From: Rickettsiales bacterium
GTDB lineage: Bacteria; Pseudomonadota; Alphaproteobacteria; Rickettsiales; JAIXRX01
Assembly: GCA_965247145.1 (NCBI GenBank)
Contig: CBDFGH010000006.1
Coordinates: forward strand, 104,778 to 168,777
Length of the DNA: 64,000 nt
Reading direction: 5' to 3'
Positions 3,122-64,000 of the stretch are shown one piece after another. Below the pieces are notes generated by a model. It was not told the origin of the DNA. It saw nothing but the letters and a program-made list of their open reading frames with translations, and did not search any database. The position numbers and the translations under genes were made by a program. How positions within the stretch are numbered: the stretch's first letter is position 1; each line of letters opens with the position of its first letter.

Positions 3122-3336
3122 AGCGGCGCTCCGTGGCGGTGCCAATAGACGACGAGGGCGGTGAGGCAGGCGGCGAGCAGCGTGTTGGCCACCAGTTTCC
3201 ACTTCAGATTCGCCCGTTTCGGCGCGCTCAGCGGCTGGCCGGGCACGGGGGCGTGGTCCCTCTCGAAACCGATGGACAGCCAGGGATACAAAGTGACGAA
3301 CCAGATGGTGACGAAGATGGCGGCGGTGAGGAGCAT
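3118..3336 (-). CDS. Hypothetical small membrane protein (72 aa, two hydrophobic helices)
   Basis: MLLTAAIFVTIWFVTLYPWL ... LVANTLLAACLTALVVYW. The stop is coupled to the next gene by an ATGA overlap. Confidence 0.5.
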   Translation of the reverse strand: MLLTAAIFVTIWFVTLYPWLSIGFERDHAPVPGQPLSAPKRANLKWKLVANTLLAACLTALVVYWHRHGAPL

Positions 3337-3478: not shown

Positions 3479-5338
3479 ATGATCGATCCCACCCATAGTA
3501 TCAACGACACGGTGCACGTTCCCGAAGAGGGGACGCACAAATACCGTGACTTCTGGGGCGCGTATAAAGGCCATGTGCTCGGCCTGATGCGCGGCACCCT
3601 GAGCGGCGGCCTGTTGGGCGCGCTGATGGGCGGCGCTTTCGTGGGGCTTGCCCTACTCGCGGGCATGACGCTGGCCGCACCCTTGGCCGTGGTGGCGGGA
3701 TTTTCGGTGCTCGGCATCTTCGTGGGTGGCGATATCATGGGACGAGCGGGCTATTCCGCCGGTGTGGCCGCCGCCGACAAAGCGGAGATGGAACTGCGCA
3801 TGCGCTATCCCGGCTCCGGCACCGGCATCGTGCGCGATCCGCTGAACCCGCCGATGGGCGAAGGCCACCATTACGAAGTGCCGCCCGAACGCGACGAAGG
3901 CAAATGGTATCATTGGCAGACCGGATTGCCGATGACCGTGCTGGGCCTGGGCGTGGGCGCGCTCGCCGCTTTCGCCTTCACCGGCCTGGTCGGGCCGCTG
4001 ATCGCCGCCGCCGGAGCGGCCAAGGGTGTATTGGCTGTCGGTGCCGCAGCCAAGGTTGCCACGGCGGGCAGCATGATCGCCGAACATGGTGTGGTGCATC
4101 TCATCGCCGAACACGGCATCGGGCTGGCCAGTTCGCTGCTGCCCTTCATGGGTGGCACGCTCGGCTTTTCCTACGGTGTCAACCGCGCGCGTTTCAAGGA
4201 CGTGTTCAACCCGATCGACCGCGTGCTGGATGGCGGCCTCATCCGTTCCCGCGCCAAAACGCTGGAACTCGAAAGCTATCAACAGGAACTGACCCCTGAG
4301 GCAGAGCACGGCAAGAACCACCCGACCATCAACACGCTGCAGCGCCAGGAAGAAGGCCACCGGCTGTTCTACGATTATTTCGAGCGCTCCTTCTGGCGCG
4401 CCACGCGCGACAGCATCAAAGGCAGTCTCGACGGCGGTCTGGTGGGCGGCCTGCTTGGGGTCACCATGGGCGCGCTCAGCTTCCTGATTCCGCCACTCAT
4501 TCCCTTCGCCCCGGTCATCACCGCGCTGGTCGCTGGCCTGGGCGCGCATGAGGGGATGAAAATCTTCACCGAAGCGGGCATGCGTTCGGGCGCCACATCC
4601 ACTGCCACCGATCTGCTTGAAGTGAAACGCCAGCGGCTGCTCAAAGGCCTGGACCCGGAAATGGATATGCCGGACGGGCGCGGCAAAGACACCCGTTTCA
4701 ATATCAAGCGTGCTTTGTTCGGTGCGGCGATCGGTCTGGTCGTCGGCGCGGCGATGTTCTCGGTCATGGGGCCCTTGGTGGCGCTTACAGGCCTTGGCGT
4801 CACCGCAGGTTCGGGCTTGGCCGCAATGGCTACCGGGCTACTCGGCACGGCGGGCGTGCCGCTACTGGCGGGCGGCATCGCGGGCATGCTTGCGGGTGCG
4901 GTGGCGGGGGTCAGCAGCCGTACGCTGAAAAGCATGGCCGGGTTGGCGGACAGCATTTACGAAGGCCGCATTTTGAAGGGCGATATTTTTCACCATACGC
5001 AAGAGCCTTGCCGCCTGCCCTATCTCGCACCCAATTCGCCCTGGCTGCCCACCGAAGGCACCGCGCAGGACCGCGCGACGGAACTGACCACCACCGTGCT
5101 GCAGCCCAAGCCCTATCAACCGGGCATGGTGCAGGCCGCACCTGAGCCCGATGCTGCCATTGCGCCGGAACCATCTCCCCGCCCCGCGCAACCGGATTAT
5201 CCCGTCTCCGCCCCCATGGCGCAGCGCGTGCAGCACCTGATCCGCGAGCGCGAGCAGAACAATGCCAGCGCCATGCAGCGCGAAGACGAGCGCAAGGTGA
5301 AGCGCGAGGCGCAGACGTCGGTGGTGATCGGCGTTTAG
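3479..5338 (+). CDS. Hypothetical polytopic membrane protein (619 aa) with glycine-zipper-like repeats and a Pro-rich C-terminal region
   Basis: Natural amino-acid composition, unlike the R/H/G-rich opposite-strand ORF 3653..4549. Repeated segments are RGTLSGGLLGALMGGAFVG, KGSLDGGLVGGLLGVTMGAL and KRALFGAAIGLVVGAAMF. The tail reads PKPYQPGMVQAAPEPDAAIAPEPSPRPAQPDYP. Confidence 0.65.
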   Translation: MIDPTHSINDTVHVPEEGTHKYRDFWGAYKGHVLGLMRGTLSGGLLGALMGGAFVGLALLAGMTLAAPLAVVAGFSVLGIFVGGDIMGRAGYSAGVAAADKAEMELRMRYPGSGTGIVRDPLNPPMGEGHHYEVPPERDEGKWYHWQTGLPMTVLGLGVGALAAFAFTGLVGPLIAAAGAAKGVLAVGAAAKVATAGSMIAEHGVVHLIAEHGIGLASSLLPFMGGTLGFSYGVNRARFKDVFNPIDRVLDGGLIRSRAKTLELESYQQELTPEAEHGKNHPTINTLQRQEEGHRLFYDYFERSFWRATRDSIKGSLDGGLVGGLLGVTMGALSFLIPPLIPFAPVITALVAGLGAHEGMKIFTEAGMRSGATSTATDLLEVKRQRLLKGLDPEMDMPDGRGKDTRFNIKRALFGAAIGLVVGAAMFSVMGPLVALTGLGVTAGSGLAAMATGLLGTAGVPLLAGGIAGMLAGAVAGVSSRTLKSMAGLADSIYEGRILKGDIFHHTQEPCRLPYLAPNSPWLPTEGTAQDRATELTTTVLQPKPYQPGMVQAAPEPDAAIAPEPSPRPAQPDYPVSAPMAQRVQHLIREREQNNASAMQREDERKVKREAQTSVVIGV

Positions 5339-10186: not shown

Positions 10187-11992
10187 ATGACCACGCCGCT
10201 TTCCCATATCCGCAATTTCTCCATCATCGCCCATATCGATCACGGCAAATCCACCTTGGCGGACCGGCTGATCGAGCAAGCGGGCGATATCGAGATGCGG
10301 GATATGAAGTCCCAGCATCTGGACAGTATGGATATTGAGCGCGAGCGCGGCATCACCATCAAAGCCCAGACCGTGCGCCTGAAATACAAAGCGAAAAATG
10401 GCGAAACCTACATCTACAACCTGATGGACACACCCGGCCACGTCGATTTCGCCTATGAAGTCAGCCGTTCTCTGGCCGCTTGCGAAGGCTCCCTGCTGGT
10501 GGTGGATGCTTCCCAAGGCGTGGAAGCGCAGACGCTGGCGAACGTCTATCAGGCCATCGACAACAACCACGAAATCATCCCCGTCCTCAATAAGATCGAC
10601 CTCCCCGCCGCCGAGCCGGAAAGGGTGAAGGAGCAGATCGAGGACGTGATCGGGCTGGATTGTTCGGATGCGCTGGAGGTTTCGGCCAAAGCGGGCATCG
10701 GCATCGCCGAGCTGCTCGAAGCCATTTCCGTGCGCCTGCCCGCCCCCAAAGGCGTGGCGGATTCCACGCTGAAAGCCATGCTGGTGGATAGCTGGTACGA
10801 TGCCTATCTCGGCGTCGTCATCCTGGTCCGCATCGTGGATGGGGTGTTGAAAAAAGGCATGAAGATCCGTTTCATGTCGAACGGCCATTCCTATCATGTC
10901 GAACAGACCGGAGTCTTCACGCCGAAGAAAGTGCCGGTCGATACGTTGGGACCGGGCGAGGTTGGCTACATCATCTGCGGTATTAAGCTGGTGGCGGATT
11001 GCCGGGTGGGCGACACGGTGACGGACGACCGCAACCCCTGCACCGAATCCCTCCCCGGCTTCCGCCCCGCCATGCCTGTGGTCTTCTGCGGGTTGTATCC
11101 GACGGACGCCTCCGATTTCGAAAATCTGCGCGATTCCCTGGGTAAACTGCAATTGAACGATGCGAGCTTCGGCTATGAGACCGAAAGCAGCTCCGCGCTC
11201 GGCTTCGGTTTCCGCTGCGGCTTCCTCGGGCTGCTGCATCTGGAAATCATCCAGGAACGCCTCGAGCGCGAATTCAACCTCGACCTCATCACCACGGCCC
11301 CCAGCGTGGTCTATAAACTCACCATGACCAATGGCGAGGAGATGGAGCTGCACAACCCGGCAGACATGCCGGAAGTCACCCGCATCGAAGCCATGTATGA
11401 GCCCTGGATCAAGGCGACCGTGATGGTGCCGGACGAATTCCTCGGCAACGTGCTTTCCCTGTGCCAGGAAAAGCGCGGCGAGCAGGTCGATCTGACGTAT
11501 GTGGGCAATCGCGCCATGGTGGTGTATCGCCTGCCGCTGAACGAAGTGGTGTATGATTTCTACGACCGTCTCAAATCCGGCACCAAAGGATATGCCAGCT
11601 TCGATTACGCGATGGACGGTTATGCCGAATCCGACCTCGTGAAACTCTCCATCCTGGTCAATGCCGAGCCGGTGGACGCCCTCTCCATCATCGTCCACAA
11701 ATCCCAGGCCGATTACCGGGGCCGCGGGCTGTGCGAGCGCCTCAAGAAACTCATCCCCCGCCAGATGTTCCAGATCGCCATCCAAGCCGCCATCGGCGGC
11801 AAAGTCATCGCCCGCGAAACCATCAGCGCCCTGCGCAAGGACGTGACGGCGAAATGCTACGGCGGGGATATCTCGCGGAAGCGGAAGCTGCTGGATAAGC
11901 AGAAGGAAGGGAAGAAGAAGATGCGTTCAGTGGGGAATGTGGATATTCCGAAAAGCGCATTCATCGCGGCGTTGAAGATGGATAACAGCTAA
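10187..11992 (+). CDS. lepA: Elongation factor 4
   Basis: 601 aa with GTPase motifs AHIDHGKST and DTPGHVDF. It has the LepA-specific C-terminal domain. Confidence 0.97.
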
Positions 11993-15238: not shown

Positions 15239-15346
15239 CGAATGGCGCTCCTGCGGCAGATGTGTGGTGAGTTGAGGTTAATGCAAATAGTCACGCTTCG
15301 CCACCGCTGGCTTGCGTGGCTTGCGTGACCCGCGAAACCGCATCCC

Positions 15347-15440
15347 CCTCATCCCACTCCGCACTTGATGCGGAGTATGGCCACTTGCGTGGGGGAGAGG
15401 ACCGGGCGGCACTCCGCATCAAGTGCGGAGTGGGATGAGG
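15347..15440. repeat. Compound palindrome: perfect 30-nt inverted repeat, each arm itself a hairpin
   Basis: CCTCATCCCACTCCGCACTTGATGCGGAGT (15347-15376) is the exact reverse complement of 15411-15440. A single-arm relative (CCCACTCCGCATCGCGTGCGGAGCGGG) is at 32908-32934. Confidence 0.9.
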
Positions 15441-15485
15441 TGGCGTGGATGTGCAAGAGTGGGTAGTAGAGGTGGCTATGCCGCG

Positions 15486-37734: not shown

Positions 37735-37860
37735 CCCTCCCCCCTCGAAGGGGGGAGGCCGGGAGGGGGTGGAGCCGCGAGCAACAGAGCCAGCCGCCCC
37801 ACCCCCACCCTACCCTTCGTCGCCCCTGCGACTCAGCCCCTCAAGGGGAAGGGAATCATC
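37735..37860. repeat. G/C-rich palindromic repeat block lying between uppS and the conserved part of cdsA
   Basis: CCCTCCCCCCTCGAAGGGGGGAGG (37735-37758), the CCTGCGACT core (37825-37833) and CCCCTCAAGGGG (37834-37853 region). Confidence 0.7.
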
Positions 37861-45647: not shown

Positions 45648-46448
45648 GTGAGTATTCACCCCACCGCCATCGTCGCTTCCGGCGCGCGCATCCACGAAAG
45701 CGCCGAGATCGGGCCTTATTGCATCGTGGGCGAACATGTCGAACTGGCAGCAAACGTGGTGCTGAAATCGCATGTTTCCTTAGATGGTCGCACCAGCATC
45801 GGCGAAGGCACCGTGGTGCATCCCTTTGCTTCCTTGGGCTCCCCGCCGCAGGATCTCAAATACAGGGGCGAGCCGTCGCAGCTCATCATCGGCGCGCGCA
45901 ACCAGATCCGCGAGCACGTCACGATGAATCCCGGCACCGAGGGCGGCGGTATGATCACCCGCGTGGGGGATGACAATCTGTTCATGGTCGGCATCCATCT
46001 CGGGCATGATTGCCAGGTGGGCAACCGCGTGATCCTCGCCAATAATTGCATCGTTGCGGGCCATGTGACGATCGGCGATTATGCGCTGCTGGGCGGACAT
46101 TCCGCCGTGCATCAATTCGTCCGCATCGGCGCGCATGCCATCATCGGCGGCATGACCGGGATCGATCACGATGTCATTCCGTACGGCTCGGTACTGGGAG
46201 AACGCGGATATCTGGCGGGTTTGAATCTGGTTGGGCTGAAACGTCGCGGCTTCGAGCGCGAAACCATCCACGCCTTGCGCAACGCGTTTAAATTTCTCTT
46301 CGAGTCCGACGAAGGTGTGCTCGCGGACCGTCTGCGCGCGGGGCGCGAGAAATACGGTGCCGTGCCGGAAGTGACGGAAATACTCGATTTCCTTTCGGCT
46401 GAAAGTGCGCGCTCCTTCACCATGCCCAAACAAGCCGGCAATATGTAA
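45648..46448 (+). CDS. lpxA: UDP-N-acetylglucosamine O-acyltransferase
   Basis: GTG start 2 nt after the fabZ stop. Hexapeptide repeats and a helical C-terminal domain. Confidence 0.95.
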   Translation: MSIHPTAIVASGARIHESAEIGPYCIVGEHVELAANVVLKSHVSLDGRTSIGEGTVVHPFASLGSPPQDLKYRGEPSQLIIGARNQIREHVTMNPGTEGGGMITRVGDDNLFMVGIHLGHDCQVGNRVILANNCIVAGHVTIGDYALLGGHSAVHQFVRIGAHAIIGGMTGIDHDVIPYGSVLGERGYLAGLNLVGLKRRGFERETIHALRNAFKFLFESDEGVLADRLRAGREKYGAVPEVTEILDFLSAESARSFTMPKQAGNM

Positions 46449-46452
46449 CTTC

Positions 46453-46540
46453 GTCATCCTGCGGCCGCGCAGCGGAGCGCAGGATGACTTTCTGCCATAA
46501 CACCGAGATCCTGTGCTGCCCTCCGGGCCCGCAGGATGAC
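46453..46540. repeat. REP-like palindromes of the GTCATCCTGCG...CGCAGGATGAC family
   Basis: Hairpin at 46453-46488 plus a half-copy GCAGGATGAC at 31-40 of line 46501 (46531-46540). The same arms occur at 60772-60851. Confidence 0.7.
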
Positions 46541-46543
46541 GAG

Positions 46544-47407
46544 ATGAACCGCATGACGCTTCCCGCCCAAACCCCTTCCCCCCTCCCCAAGCTTGGCATC
46601 GTCGCCGGAGCGGGGCTGTTGCCCGGTATGATCCGCAGCGTGTGCCTGCAGCAAGGCCGCGAGGTCTTCGCACTCGCCGTCGAAGGCACGACCGACCCGG
46701 CGGCGGTGGAAGGCATTCCCCATATCTGGATGCGGATGGGAGAGATCGCGCATGCGCTGGACCGCCTGAAGGAACAGCATCTCGGGGAGATCGTCATGGC
46801 GGGTCATCTGCCGCGCCCCAGCCTCAGTTCGCTGAAGCCGAGCCTGGCCACCACCCGCCTGCTCGCCCGCGTGGGCGCGGCCTTCTTCAGCGGAGACGAC
46901 GCACTGCTCTCGACCATCACGCGCATATTCGAGGAAGAAAACATCCGCGTGGTCGGCGCAGACGAAATCCTCACCGACCTCATCGCGCCCGCCGGGCCCA
47001 TCGGCCGCCACCTGCCGGACCGGCATGCGCAGGGCGACATTCGCGTGGGCGTGGAAGCCGCCCATGTGCTGGGCCAGCTCGATATCGGGCAGGCCACCAT
47101 CGTGCAGCAGGGCCGCATTCTTGGGGTGGAGGCCGCCGAAGGCACGGACGAACTCATCCACCGCTGCAAACCCTACATCGAGGCGGGCGAAAAAGGCGGG
47201 GTGCTGGTGAAAGCCAAGAAACCCGGCCAGGAACGCCGCGTCGACCTCCCCGCCATCGGCGTGCAGACCGTGCGCCTGGCCGCCGAAGCAGGCCTGAGCG
47301 GCATCGCCATCGAAGCCGGCGGCGCCCTGGTCATCGACCGCAAAGCGGTGGCCGAAGCCGCCAACGAAGCGGGTATTTTCGTGATCGGGTTCAGCCGGGA
47401 TCAGTAA
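46544..47407 (+). CDS. lpxI: UDP-2,3-diacylglucosamine hydrolase LpxI (DUF1009)
   Basis: LGIVAGAGLLP ... GGVLVKAKKPGQERRVDLPAIG ... AGLSGIAIEAGGALVID. I moved the start to the ATG at 46544 because the first 20 track codons lie inside the repeat. Confidence 0.8.
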   Translation: MNRMTLPAQTPSPLPKLGIVAGAGLLPGMIRSVCLQQGREVFALAVEGTTDPAAVEGIPHIWMRMGEIAHALDRLKEQHLGEIVMAGHLPRPSLSSLKPSLATTRLLARVGAAFFSGDDALLSTITRIFEEENIRVVGADEILTDLIAPAGPIGRHLPDRHAQGDIRVGVEAAHVLGQLDIGQATIVQQGRILGVEAAEGTDELIHRCKPYIEAGEKGGVLVKAKKPGQERRVDLPAIGVQTVRLAAEAGLSGIAIEAGGALVIDRKAVAEAANEAGIFVIGFSRDQ

Positions 47408-47427
47408 GTCCGCATAATCTTCGCTTT

Positions 47428-47504
47428 GTCATTCCAGCGAAAGCTGGAACCCAGTCTTTACCCACCATTCAAAATTACTGAATCCCAGCTTTCGCTGGGA
47501 TGAC
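47428..47504. repeat. REP-like inverted repeat (GTCATTCCAGCGAAAGCTGGAACCCAG / CTGAATCCCAGCTTTCGCTGGGATGAC)
   Basis: Arms at 47428-47454 and 47478-47504, directly after lpxI. Confidence 0.8.
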
Positions 47505-47524
47505 AGCATTTGTCGACCACCCAT

Positions 47525-60771: not shown

Positions 60772-60851
60772 GTCATCCTGCGCGCAGTCGCAGGATCTCC
60801 GAGCGCTTCCCGCACCAGATCCTGCGACTCCCGTTGGTCGCGCAGGATGAC
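60772..60851. repeat. Nested palindromic element between purQ and purL
   Basis: Outer arms GTCATCCTGCGCG / CGCGCAGGATGAC (60772-60784 / 60839-60851). Inner arms GTCGCAGGATCT / AGATCCTGCGAC (60787-60798 / 60817-60828). Both pairs are perfect. Confidence 0.85.
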
Positions 60852-60870
60852 GAATAAGAGGATAACGATC

Positions 60871-63186
60871 ATGAATGCCCCCGCCCGCACCGAATCCGCG
60901 AAACTCTACGACCAGATCGACGGCTCCGCCGCCATGGCGAAGGAGTTTGGATTGAAGGAGGAGGAATATGCGAAAGTCCTGAGCATCCTCGGGCGCACGC
61001 CGAACATGACCGAACTGGGCATCTTCTCGGTGATGTGGAGCGAGCATTGCTCGTATAAAACCACGCGCAAGCACCTCTCCAAACTCCCCACCAAGGCCCC
61101 TTGGGTCATCTGCGGCCCGGGCGAGAATGCGGGCGTGATCGATATCGGGGACGGTCAGGCGGCGATCTTCAAGATGGAGTCGCACAACCACCCCAGCTAC
61201 ATCGAACCCTACCAGGGTGCGGCCACCGGCGTCGGCGGCATTCTGCGCGACGTCTTCACCATGGGCGCACGGCCCGTGGCGAATCTGAACGCGCTGCGCT
61301 TCGGCTCGCCGGATCATGCGAAAACCCGCCACCTCGTTTCCGGCGTCGTCGCTGGCATCGGCGGCTACGGGAATTGCGTGGGCGTGCCCACCGTGGGCGG
61401 CGAATGCAGCTTCCATGAAAGCTACAACGGCAACATCCTGGTCAACGCCATGAATGTCGGCGTGGCGGATGCGGATAAGATTTTCTATTCCACGGCGGCG
61501 GGCATCGGCAATCCGGTCATCTATGTCGGCAGCAAAACCGGGCGGGACGGCATACATGGCGCGACCATGGCCAGCACAGAATTCACCGAAGGCATGGAAG
61601 AAAAGCGCCCCACCGTGCAGGTGGGCGACCCCTTCACCGAAAAGCTGCTGATCGAAGCCTGCCTGGAATTGATGGCGACAGACGCCATCATCGCCATCCA
61701 GGACATGGGCGCGGCGGGCCTCACCTCCTCCAGCCTCGAGATGGCGGGCAAAGGCGAACTCGGCATCGAACTCGCGATGGACAAAGTTCCCGCCCGCGAG
61801 ACGGGCATGACCCCGTATGAATTCATGCTCTCCGAAAGCCAGGAACGCATGCTGATGATTCTGAAGCCGGAAAAGCAGGAAATGGCGCGCGCGATCTTCG
61901 AGAAATGGGGCCTGGATTTCGCCACCATCGGCACGCTCACCGACACCGGTCGCCTCGTCCTCACCATGCATGGCGAGATCGCCTGCGACATTCCCGTAGG
62001 CCCACTCAGCCACGACGCGCCGATTTACGACCGTCCGTGGGTCATCGAAACCTGGGAGACTAGGCAGTCGCAAGTCGCAAGCCGCAAGTCGCAAGGTAGT
62101 GATGATGCGAAACCAAATGACAAAGACACCCAAGCCCCCCCTGCGACTTGCGACTTGCGACTTGCGACTACCAGCGCCCCGATCATCGACAGCCTCAAAA
62201 CCCTCATCGCCTGCCCCGATCTCGCCAGCAAACGCTGGATCTGGGAGCAGTATGACCGCATGGTCGGCAACGATACGGTGGCCAGCTCCGGCAGCGCGGA
62301 CGCCGCCATCGTGCGCGTGCACGGCACCGGCAAAGCGCTGGCGATGACCACCGATTGCACCCCGCGCTATGTCGCGGCCGACCCCCGCCTGGGCGGCATG
62401 CAGGCCGTCGTCGAATCCTGGCGCAACCTCACCGCCGTGGGCGCAACCCCGCTCGCCATCACCAACTGCCTGAATTTCGGCAACCCCGAAAAACCCGAAG
62501 TGATGGGCCAGATCGTCGGCGCGATCGAAGGCATCGCCGAAGCCTGCCGCGCGCTGGACTACCCCGTCGTCTCCGGCAACGTCTCGCTCTACAACGACAC
62601 CAACGGCCAGAGCGTGCAGCCCACCCCGGCCATCGGCGGTGTCGGCGTATTGAAAGACGTGACGAAACGCACCGGCAACGCCGTGACCGAAGAAGGCCTC
62701 GCGCTGATCCTCCTCGGTGAAACCCAAGGCCATCTCGGCAGCAGCCTCTATCTCCGCGAAATCCAGCGCCGCGAAGACGGCGCGCCCCCGCCCATCGACC
62801 TCGCGCAGGAACGCAAAACCGGCGATTTCGTGCGCGCCCAGATCGTCGCGGGCCACGTCGCCGCCTGCCATGATGTGAGCGACGGCGGACTTCTCGTCGC
62901 CATCGCCGAAATGCTCATGCCCCACGGCATCGGCGCGCATGTCACGCTGCCCGAAGGCCCGGCCCACGCCATAGCGTTCGGCGAAGACCAGGGCCGTTAC
63001 ATTCTGGCCGTGAAAGACGCCAACGTGCTTCTTGCCACTGCCCAATCCGCCGACATCTCCGCCGTCCAACTCGGCACCACCAGCGGCACTGAACTCGGCG
63101 TCGAAGACCATGGCGAGATCAATGTTAAATCCCTCCGCAGCGCCAACGAAGCCTGGCTGCCGGAATATATGGCGGGGGCGAAGTGA
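60871..63186 (+). CDS. purL: Phosphoribosylformylglycinamidine synthase subunit PurL
   Basis: WSEHCSYK and [25 protein letters not shown] motifs. I chose the ATG at 60871, after AAGAGGA, because the track start at 60847 lies in the repeat. Confidence 0.95.
62063..62172. repeat. In-frame hairpin element inside purL built from heptamer microsatellites
   Basis: The left arm, GGCAGTCGCAAGTCGCAAGCCGCAAGTCGCAAGG (62063-62096), is four GTCGCAA-type heptamers. The right arm, CCCTGCGACTTGCGACTTGCGACTTGCGACTACC (62139-62172), is its reverse complement at 31 of 34 positions. The loop is 42 nt. Confidence 0.9.
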
Positions 63187-64000
63187 ATCGAGTTTCTACC
63201 GTAATTATCGCTTTGATACTTTCACTCTTCCAAACTTATGGAGCGGAAGCCGCCTCGCACAAAGCGGTAAGTACATCAGAAATCGTTTTTGATACGCCGT
63301 CTGGTGCGAATTCCGATAACGCAACAAATTATAGAAGCACGGTAAACAATCATTATTACCGTGTATTAGGCGGACATATATTCTCGATTGGAGAAGCATT
63401 TCAGATTCAGGCCCCATATTGGGAAGGCGATGAACATATCCGGTATTCAGCGGATATTTATGAAATGAAACAGAACAAGCAAGTTCCCATTCTGCAACCT
63501 GTCAGCAACATACCCATAGAAATGGCGGCAAAACCGATTCTTCGTATTCCTTATGCAGACTCCATTCATGTGTTTTTTAATGGCCAGATCCTGAAACTTC
63601 CCAATGCCATCGAAACAGAATCAAAACCATTGACCGACGCGTTGATAATTTCGAATTCATCGAGTTGCTGTGGGGGTGGTGATGATACGAATTATTACGA
63701 CCTTAAAACGAAGAAGCGAATCTTCTCTATTTCTTACGCGCCGAGCGAGGAAAATAGGGAGGATGCCTTACCTATGCAAAAAGATGGGCAATGGGTTCTA
63801 CTGACATTGACCGCTCAATCTCCCACTGAATCTCATCCGGGCAAAAATGGAGGCAGGGGCATGGTCGGGCGTCGCGCGACTTTACGTATGGATCTACTGA
63901 GCGCCGACGCTAAAAGTTCTATCGGCACTACAGTGTTTTTGCCGAAAGATCTCGAAACGATGTGCCAAGAAGGGTGTAATTTTGAAATAGAAAAAGATGA
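63183..64000 (+). CDS. Hypothetical secreted protein, AT-rich gene, partial (runs off the right edge)
   Basis: Absent from the ORF track (no stop in the window). The frame is open from the GTG at 63183, which overlaps the purL TGA (GTGA), to the end of the window. It translates [25 protein letters not shown] (signal-like), then ...[16 protein letters not shown]...[15 protein letters not shown]. Line 63301-63360 hand-counts to 23/60 GC. Confidence 0.5.

Follow-up and report, generated by a model that had tools for sequence, protein, structure and literature searches.

An in-frame inverted pair of heptamer arrays in the PurL linker of related uncultured alphaproteobacteria

According to our analysis, the purL gene carried by the 64-kb stretch of Rickettsiales bacterium DNA considered here (positions 104,778 to 168,777 of contig CBDFGH010000006.1; this whole stretch is called the window below) contains an inverted pair of arrays, each of four heptamer units, which is read in frame and encodes a piece of an interdomain linker that is predicted to be disordered. 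Related bacteria carry such a pair at the same site of the same gene, and we are confident that it is a locus-specific, clade-wide feature of purL. If the pattern holds, the architecture (repeat period, number of units, and complementarity of the arms) is conserved in a coding gene, at the orthologous site of several lineages, while the sequence and the encoded peptide turn over, which gives it more interest than an isolated insertion would have. The element may show how a non-triplet microsatellite is trapped over the long term by selection on the reading frame, with its palindrome kept by template switching, as a bacterial instance of molecular drive; alternatively, it may reveal an unrecognised regulatory or folding device embedded in an open reading frame (ORF) of purine biosynthesis. 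Both readings lend themselves to direct tests, since no constraint holds the linker peptide and the hairpin may be freely recoded. In protein alignments, linkers of this kind also look like insertions of hypervariable sequence, by which annotation, clustering, and structure prediction can be misled. Full-text literature searches returned no description of a purL hairpin.

The purL hairpin in the window

The host ORF (60847 to 63186, plus strand) encodes 779 amino acids and is read straight through the hairpin. It corresponds to small PurL, the FGAM synthase subunit II, and matches NF002290 with 1019 bits (cutoff, 648) and TIGR01736 with 932 bits. The Thermus thermophilus PurL structure 3VIU matches the window protein (E = 5e-187) in two blocks on either side of the linker, and the hairpin-encoded stretch falls within residues 397 to 447, the part that does not align to 3VIU. 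Located between the conserved YDRP and (C)PDLASK, the codons of the B1-A2 interdomain linker span 177 nt (62038 to 62214, plus strand), and the linker is about 28 amino acids longer than canonical ones. An AlphaFold2 model built with 51 sequences gives pLDDT values below 50 at residues 416 to 438, and the hairpin-encoded linker peptide is predicted to be disordered.

The whole hairpin lies at 62063 to 62172 on the plus strand and consists of two inverted four-unit heptamer arrays around a loop. Its 5' arm (62063 to 62096, plus strand) reads GGC(AGTCGCA)(AGTCGCA)(AGCCGCA)(AGTCGCA)AGG, the third unit being a variant, and is followed by a 42-nt loop (62097 to 62138, plus strand) and by the 3' arm (62139 to 62172, plus strand), CCC(TGCGACT)x4 ACC, whose four perfect heptamers are the reverse complement of those in the 5' arm. 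Watson-Crick pairs can form at 31 of the 34 opposed arm positions. Tandem Repeats Finder reports a period of 7 for both arms, with 4.3 copies at 62066 to 62095 and 4.0 copies at 62142 to 62169, and these are the only period-7 arrays of at least four units in the window. A two-unit probe, GTCGCAAGTCGCAA, searched with up to 2 mismatches, gave six matches, all of them within the hairpin, where 0.92 would be expected by chance. The in-frame position in the PurL linker and the anatomy of arms and loop, as first described from the letters alone, are thus borne out by both the sequence and its translation.

The same sequence-only reading had attributed a strong folding potential to the element, and the computed energies agree. 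The RNA of 62055 to 62180 folds at -58.4 kcal/mol, compared with -29.1 ± 2.9 kcal/mol in dinucleotide shuffles (z score, -10.2), a stability that none of the 200 shuffles reached; the corresponding DNA fold has -34.4 kcal/mol and a z score of -8.4. The loop is unusually long, since an ungapped stem finder gave loops of 4 to 42 nt in the relatives described below and of 24 nt in the closest of them, L001. A search with Rfam 15 yielded no match at the gathering score anywhere in the window, and the only sub-threshold match on the hairpin was to a plant miRNA-precursor model (31.7 bits versus 90), which we ascribe to its being a generic hairpin. As for transcription signals, the sense strand has no terminator-like site at the hairpin, the antisense strand has one weak match to the intrinsic terminator consensus that lies within shuffle expectation, and no promoter signal was found at the hairpin.

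The same site in related purL genes

When the 60 best protein homologues were aligned, many of their linkers showed odd peptides. DNA was taken for 13 orthologues chosen either by a hairpin-like linker peptide or by the clade motif APxYDRPYEI, and a metagenome scan with a degenerate form of this pattern returned three loci. The orthologue loci are L001, L003 to L006, and L088 to L095, which together with the window make up 14 inverted-repeat loci. An inverted repeat occurs at the same purL site in all 13 chosen orthologues, and in 12 of them it is built of heptamer arrays with about four units per arm, the exception being L088, with an irregular 39-nt palindrome. The idea that the hairpin is a peculiarity or a recent insertion of the window genome, as it had appeared from that sequence alone, is therefore abandoned: the element is found across the clade at the orthologous site.

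The unit of the window is shared by L001, the protein of which is 87% identical to that of the window and which also has AGTCGCA. Elsewhere, the units (5' arm/3' arm) are NAGTCGC/YAGAGAC in L092, CAGTTGY/ACTGGGA in L093, CAGGTTC/GAAACCY in L091, GGAGTGT/ACACTCY in both L094 and L089, GGGATTR/AATCCCC in L003, GGCATTG/TAATGCC in L004, GGGATTC/GAAAYAC in L090, GGGCTTA/AAGCCAC in L005, GCGGTCA/TGACCGC in L006, and GGGGTCA/CCCYGAC in L095. Across loci, the units thus include AGTCGCA, AGTCGCC, CAGTTGC, CAGGTTC, GGAGTGT, GGGATTA, GGGATTC, GGGCTTA, GCGGTCA, and GGGGTCA. At every inverted-repeat locus the reading frame is open and free of stop codons through the hairpin. The linker measures 93 to 114 nt in the 12 inverted-repeat loci other than the window and L001, compared with about 87 to 93 nt for canonical linkers, so that the hairpin mostly takes the place of the linker and lengthens it little; long outliers are L001, with 144 nt, and the window, with 177 nt. 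The hairpin carriers belong to a clade of uncultured alphaproteobacteria, and those that have a name (L006 and several protein matches) are registered as 'Rickettsiales bacterium' in NCBI.

As controls, we used 60 canonical 'VPTPKR'-type alphaproteobacterial linkers from among the matches listed in a PurL scan of a genome collection (at most 69% identity), with Sphingomonas, Azospirillum, and Caulobacter among the genera. The heptamer hairpin was present in none of these 60 linkers. The mean folding z score of the linker was -4.9 in the 14 inverted-repeat loci and -0.32 in the controls, where the minimum was -3.0. The consensus unit of the 5' arm agrees with the reverse complement of the 3' unit at 6.0 of 7 positions within a locus and at 3.8 of 7 across loci, and the within-locus sum was reached by none of 20,000 permutations (p < 5e-5). 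When 13 loci were compared with their registers anchored, each of the 26 stem columns showed two to four types of Watson-Crick pair. RNAalifold, run on a MAFFT alignment, recovered no more than nine pairs, because the 3' arms do not align by sequence; six of the nine show double compensatory changes. A degenerate back-translation of linker peptides gave a z score of at least 2 for about 35 of 118 homologues, but since it missed the known hairpins of P0031, P0067, and P0052 while catching perfect stems, it does not provide a firm figure for prevalence.

Within the 201.5 kb surrounding the 14 purL genes, all period-7 arrays sit in the purL linker, and the window holds no second copy of the heptamer hairpin. 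The 9-mers of the window hairpin occur in the rest of the window at chance level (124 observed versus 113.6 expected from shuffled versions), and none of the 14 loci has an excess of its hairpin 9-mers outside the hairpin relative to shuffled versions. Around 80 other purL genes (1.27 Mb), period-7 arrays appear in one unrelated genome only, L013, a Lake Mendota 'Rickettsiales' metagenome-assembled genome with a canonical purL linker. It carries (GGTTAGT)x13 at 10457 to 10549, about 290 nt downstream of purL, and (GGTTAGT)x3 at 3535 to 3557, about 4.5 kb upstream of purL and about 7 kb from the longer array. A scan of viral contigs for GTCGCAA arrays turned up two plain tandem arrays, unrelated and lacking an inverted partner, and a PurL scan of viral contigs returned relatives at 46 to 48% identity only, which were left unused.

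Turnover of the units and candidate explanations

Since PurL is so conserved, protein identity understates the divergence between these loci. L004 and L090 are 92% identical in protein and have an identity of 0.41 at 4-fold sites; lineages at about 75% protein identity have 0.33 to 0.38, which is essentially saturated, while the window and L001 (87% protein identity) have 0.63. The hairpin architecture is kept between lineages whose 4-fold-site identity is 0.33 to 0.41, and within a lineage the units of both arms are alike, whereas between lineages the unit sequence differs. Retention of the architecture in the face of nearly saturated synonymous sites, together with the likeness of units within a lineage, indicates concerted evolution. 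Between the window and L001, 50 of 56 arm positions are identical, and the arms are thus more conserved than the 4-fold sites of the same pair.

Quite different hairpin peptides are found inside 90%-identity clusters (P0120/P0130, P0026/P0132, P0057/P0133, and P0068/P0134), which reflects concerted change of the units together with a peptide free of constraint and does not mean that substitutions are more frequent. At first sight the hairpin looks hypervariable between nearly identical proteins, but at 92% protein identity the 4-fold sites are down to 41% identity, so that change in the arms is no faster than at neutral sites. Among loci, the arrays stand in different phases to the reading frame (0, 1, or 2); this variation, the differing peptides, and the disorder of the region argue that selection does not act on the peptide. 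The units within either arm are uniform in L090, L092, and L091, and from one arm to the other they differ at the same two positions in every unit. Uniform arms despite such systematic mismatches point to a mutational homogenising drive more than to selection for pairing alone. L001 offers a further hint, in the form of a single anecdote: the variant in left unit 3 (GTCGTAA) is complementary to that in right unit 4 (TTACGAC) only when the hairpin is slipped by two units, as out-of-register templating would produce. A reading of CGTAAG/CTTACG in L001 as a compensatory change was rejected, since in register these two variants do not face each other.

Going by these patterns in the sequences, we tentatively favour the view that the hairpin would be a self-homogenising, frame-locked palindromic microsatellite which is tolerated as linker peptide. 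Heptamers would belong to a size class of longer simple repeats favoured by bacterial replication slippage; heptanucleotide repeats are the most abundant class of simple repeats of 5 to 11 nt in most prokaryotic genomes, and polymerase slippage was proposed to account for them (PMC4679880). Out-of-register pairing of the repeated arms would then lead to slippage and to intra-strand template switching of the quasipalindrome-correction type, by which a variant unit may be copied to other units and to the opposite arm, so that units would become alike and complementarity would be restored. The commonest length changes, gains and losses of single units, would be purged as frameshifts, since the unit length of 7 is not divisible by 3 and purL is required; the array would consequently neither shrink nor expand but stay at about 4+4 units. 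The peptide would be carried along as a passenger, the linker accepting any flexible sequence. The resulting mRNA hairpin may have been co-opted, for instance for slowing ribosomes between the two pseudo-symmetric halves of PurL, although nothing that we found requires this.

Elements of this scheme have precedents. In Escherichia coli, template-switch mutations perfect quasipalindromes, that is, imperfect inverted repeats are perfected by intra-strand template switching, which is the process invoked here for purL (PMC7202029). Those hotspots, however, were followed over laboratory time, whereas purL would call for long-term upkeep and homogenisation of an inverted microsatellite by template switching. 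In Xanthomonas, heptamer repeats show a preference for four units and occur as convergent inverted pairs (PMC4692102).

Several observations weigh against this explanation. We infer template switching and slippage at the purL locus from patterns among the sequences compared, and neutral drive alone leaves the restriction to purL, the uniform unit number, and the uniform stem length unexplained, features that fit selection on structure equally well. Coverage of the window genome amounts to 64 kb, and a low-copy dispersed family might exist in that genome. The nearest relative after L001, L002/P0003 (75% identity), is without the hairpin at the DNA level, and P0038, P0056, and P0075 have short linkers according to peptide evidence only. 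The hairpin is thus seemingly absent from some members of the clade, and the frame lock would not prevent loss. Finally, a neighbour-joining tree of 118 PurL proteins interleaves hairpin-type and canonical linkers; we assume a single origin with losses, the tree being too weakly resolved for gains and losses to be mapped on it.

The explanation that survives next best is selection on a nucleic acid structure, which we regard as possible though not probable. According to it, the hairpin is functional in the purL mRNA or in transiently single-stranded DNA, selection keeps a stem of about 25 to 31 bp, and the heptamer periodicity is a by-product of stem growth. Candidate roles include a ribosome pause between the A1B1 and A2B2 halves that would favour folding or assembly with PurS and PurQ, a site for RNase III or other processing, and stabilisation of the mRNA. 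A translational roadblock, as proposed in the sequence-only reading, may exist. In favour of such selection, lineages with saturated synonymous sites have kept the same site, stem length, and unit number, and the abundant covariation, the occurrence in purL only within 201 kb, and the replacement of the canonical linker by the hairpin in most members (93 to 114 nt versus about 90 nt) fit it as well. So does a recurrent GAAGAA-like purine motif, found where the loop begins in several of the lineages in the MAFFT alignment.

Other properties of the stems fit selection on structure less well. Stability varies widely among the inverted-repeat loci (folding z scores from -0.2 to -8.1), and L090 and L092 keep uniform units with two systematic mismatches per unit, which is unexpected if pairing is selected. 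Stem mismatches comprise 31 A.C, 10 G.T, and 37 others, the opposite of the wobble signature expected for sense RNA, no trace of which is seen in these counts. The antisense strand folds as well as or slightly better than the sense strand, but the same is true of the controls, and neither the wobble counts nor the comparison of strands identifies the acting strand. Moreover, selection for a stem does not require tandem periodicity, the element is absent in some clade members, and the hairpin has no Rfam family and no terminator or promoter signal. The more specific proposition, that the hairpin is a selected, clade-wide, cis-acting element of purL representing a new class of microsatellite-type structure inside an ORF, with functional multi-register arms, seems to us rather unlikely; such an element would govern how fast translation proceeds, how FGAM synthase folds co-translationally or assembles, or how the purL mRNA is processed.

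A different use of the repeats was suggested by the sequence-only reading, namely, that the tracts are a contingency or phase-variation site. A slip by one heptamer would switch purL off, and a second, compensating slip in either arm would switch it back on, yielding purine-auxotrophic subpopulations in a host-associated lifestyle, with cycles of off and on states homogenising the units. The arithmetic on which this rests is sound: as had been claimed, a one-unit change shifts the frame, and in simulation one unit more or less in either arm leaves PurL truncated at residues 419 to 497, while a -1/+1 pair of unit changes restores the purL frame. The concerted evolution of the units implies unit turnover, and the L095 locus carries markers of host association (ankyrin-repeat and TrbC genes). 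Like contingency simple sequence repeats (SSRs), the purL tract has a unit length indivisible by 3 inside an ORF. By general background and in part by the Xanthomonas study (PMC4692102), however, the contingency tracts of host-adapted bacteria are longer, differ in length from strain to strain, and are located in surface or restriction-modification genes, whereas purL is a housekeeping gene. The expected variation in tract length among relatives was not seen, since unit number is about 4+4 in 13 of the 14 loci and the same 4+4 in the window and the 87%-identical L001. Four units are also short for a useful switching rate, and no purL fragment breaks at the hairpin, the truncated cluster members that were checked being C-terminal fragments that neither start nor end there. 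Therefore, a contingency switch is, in our view, very unlikely, and this part of the earlier proposal did not hold up.

The closest known kind of repeat is represented by the G-rich heptamer SSRs of Xanthomonas (GGGAATC) and of Nostoc/Anabaena (GGGGAYT, the cyanobacterial STRR class) (Rehm et al. 2015, PMC4692102). Like these, the purL hairpin has tandem 7-nt units, about four per array, and its arrays form a convergent inverted pair capable of adopting a stem-loop or cruciform; convergent inverted heptamer pairs occupy 70 to 75 sites per Xanthomonas genome (PMC4692102). In some purL lineages the units (GGGATTC and GGGGATT) are nearly the same as those of Xanthomonas and Nostoc. The differences lie in distribution, the repeats of both Xanthomonas and Nostoc being dispersed and intergenic. 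Xanthomonas repeats are dispersed over about 180 sites per genome, mostly intergenic, with under-representation inside coding regions (PMC4692102), whereas the purL hairpin is a single locus inside an ORF of essential type, in frame, and orthologous across the clade. A Xanthomonas-like density would place about seven period-7 arrays outside the purL linker in the 201.5 kb from 14 genomes, where we counted none. The purL units are also diverse and often not G-rich, that of the window (AGTCGCA) being without a G-tract.

The last point bears on whether a G-quadruplex might be involved, since the Xanthomonas and Nostoc heptamer repeats have been linked to G-quadruplex formation (PMC4692102). A switch between G-quadruplex and hairpin, with four G-tracts spaced by 7 nt, or a protein binding one heptad per subunit, appears highly improbable to us. 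The four units per arm recall the four-unit preference tied to quadruplex formation for GGGNATC repeats (PMC4692102), the 5' arms are G-rich overall (156 G versus 79 C), and canonical (G3N1-7)x4 motifs are present in the arms of L003, L090, and L095 on the sense strand and of L091 on the antisense strand, compared with 0 of 60 controls. However, these G3 motifs are confined to 4 of 14 loci, and G-tracts are missing in the window, L001, L092, and L093, so that a quadruplex cannot be a conserved property of the element. The specificity of a heptad-binding protein, in turn, would have to re-evolve in every lineage.

A precedent for heptamers that build up one helix may be found in cyanobacteria. 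STRR heptamers reportedly lie inside helix P12 of the cyanobacterial RNase P RNA, a finding said to go back to Vioque in 1997. Like those repeats, the purL heptamers occupy both arms of one helix and lengthen a tolerant region while function is kept. In cyanobacteria the heptamers sit in a structural RNA and are members of a genome-wide family, whereas in purL the host is a protein-coding linker and the repeat is specific to the locus.

Least credible is an origin by in-frame insertion of a palindromic repeat that is mobile or dispersed (REP/REPIN, MITE, or a kind resembling the Rickettsia palindromic element [RPE]), akin to the REP-like hairpins of the window. The purL palindrome lies in frame in an ORF at a permissive site, as inserted MITEs and RPEs do, and like RPEs, which provide known in-frame palindromic insertions in Rickettsia, it is translated within a housekeeping protein, at a surface position that the structure tolerates (PMC10969869); the extra 28 or so amino acids of the window linker would suit such an origin. 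RPEs, however, measure about 150 bp, are multi-copy (44 insertions in Rickettsia conorii), and form sequence families with a conserved peptide (PMC10969869), while the purL hairpin is single in the sequence examined, encodes no conserved peptide, and is built as a microsatellite. Distant relatives hold hairpins of the same architecture but different sequence at the same site, and the 9-mer counts stand at chance both in the window and in the 13 other loci. A multi-copy family with conserved sequence or peptide, as expected of MITEs or RPEs, was not found, and neither a target-site duplication nor extra terminal inverted repeats were noticed on reading the sequence, for which no dedicated search was made. 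REP and REPIN sequences exist as many nearly identical, dispersed, and mostly extragenic copies, whereas the 64 kb contain one intragenic copy.

The proposed tie to the REP families of the window is weak. The 9-mer CCTGCGACT/AGTCGCAGG indeed occurs four times in the window where 0.41 occurrences are expected, two of these occurrences form the inner arms of a single REP-like hairpin between purQ and purL, in the spacer, and it is also found at 37825. This 79-nt spacer hairpin (60772 to 60850; CGTCATCCTGCGCGCAGTCGCAGGATC...GATCCTGCGACT...GCGCAGGATGACG) has a predicted RNA folding energy of -46.7 kcal/mol (z score, -6.6) and lies just before the purL start, 1.2 kb upstream of the heptamer hairpin. 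One shared 9-mer, set beside different units at the same site in relatives and overall 9-mer sharing at chance level, is no evidence for membership in a REP family, and the family tie was dropped.

Neighbouring hairpins and gene context

Apart from the spacer hairpin, the window contains long imperfect hairpins at 31645 to 31764, 46446 to 46547, and 47427 to 47505, as well as at 15344 to 15443 and 676 to 736. The REP-like hairpins of the window carry GTCATCC...GGATGAC arms, and some of the long imperfect hairpins have arms of the GTCATCC(C/T)G... type like the one in the purQ-purL spacer, while none has heptamer periodicity. Taken together, they look like a dispersed REP-like family.

At some loci, a second, perfect 11-bp hairpin follows directly 3' of the heptamer hairpin, inside the conserved 'LLxxPDL' codons, with z scores of -4 to -8. 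It was located at 3254 to 3278 in L003, at about 11233 to 11260 in L091, and at about 11230 to 11255 in L094; being restricted to 3 of the 14 loci, it was rejected as part of the conserved element. Another variation on the same PurL site is seen in P0109, represented by its protein only, where a 57-amino-acid linker (...SPSGRGRNSAGVSGEGL...SPHPSPLPEGEG...) looks as though a different palindromic insert had been translated there.

Conservation of PurL is markedly higher in its N-terminal half (A1B1) than in its C-terminal half in every close pair, with identities of 99.2% versus 92.2% in one pair and of 96.5% versus 83.9% between the window and P0002. This probably represents a difference in rate between the catalytic and the pseudo-symmetric halves, although a recombination break at the hairpin might be its source instead. 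As for the surroundings of the gene, the GC content falls from about 0.67 inside purL to 0.43 to 0.50 right after the stop codon (63200 to 64000 of the window), and in relatives the gene that follows purL is bolA.

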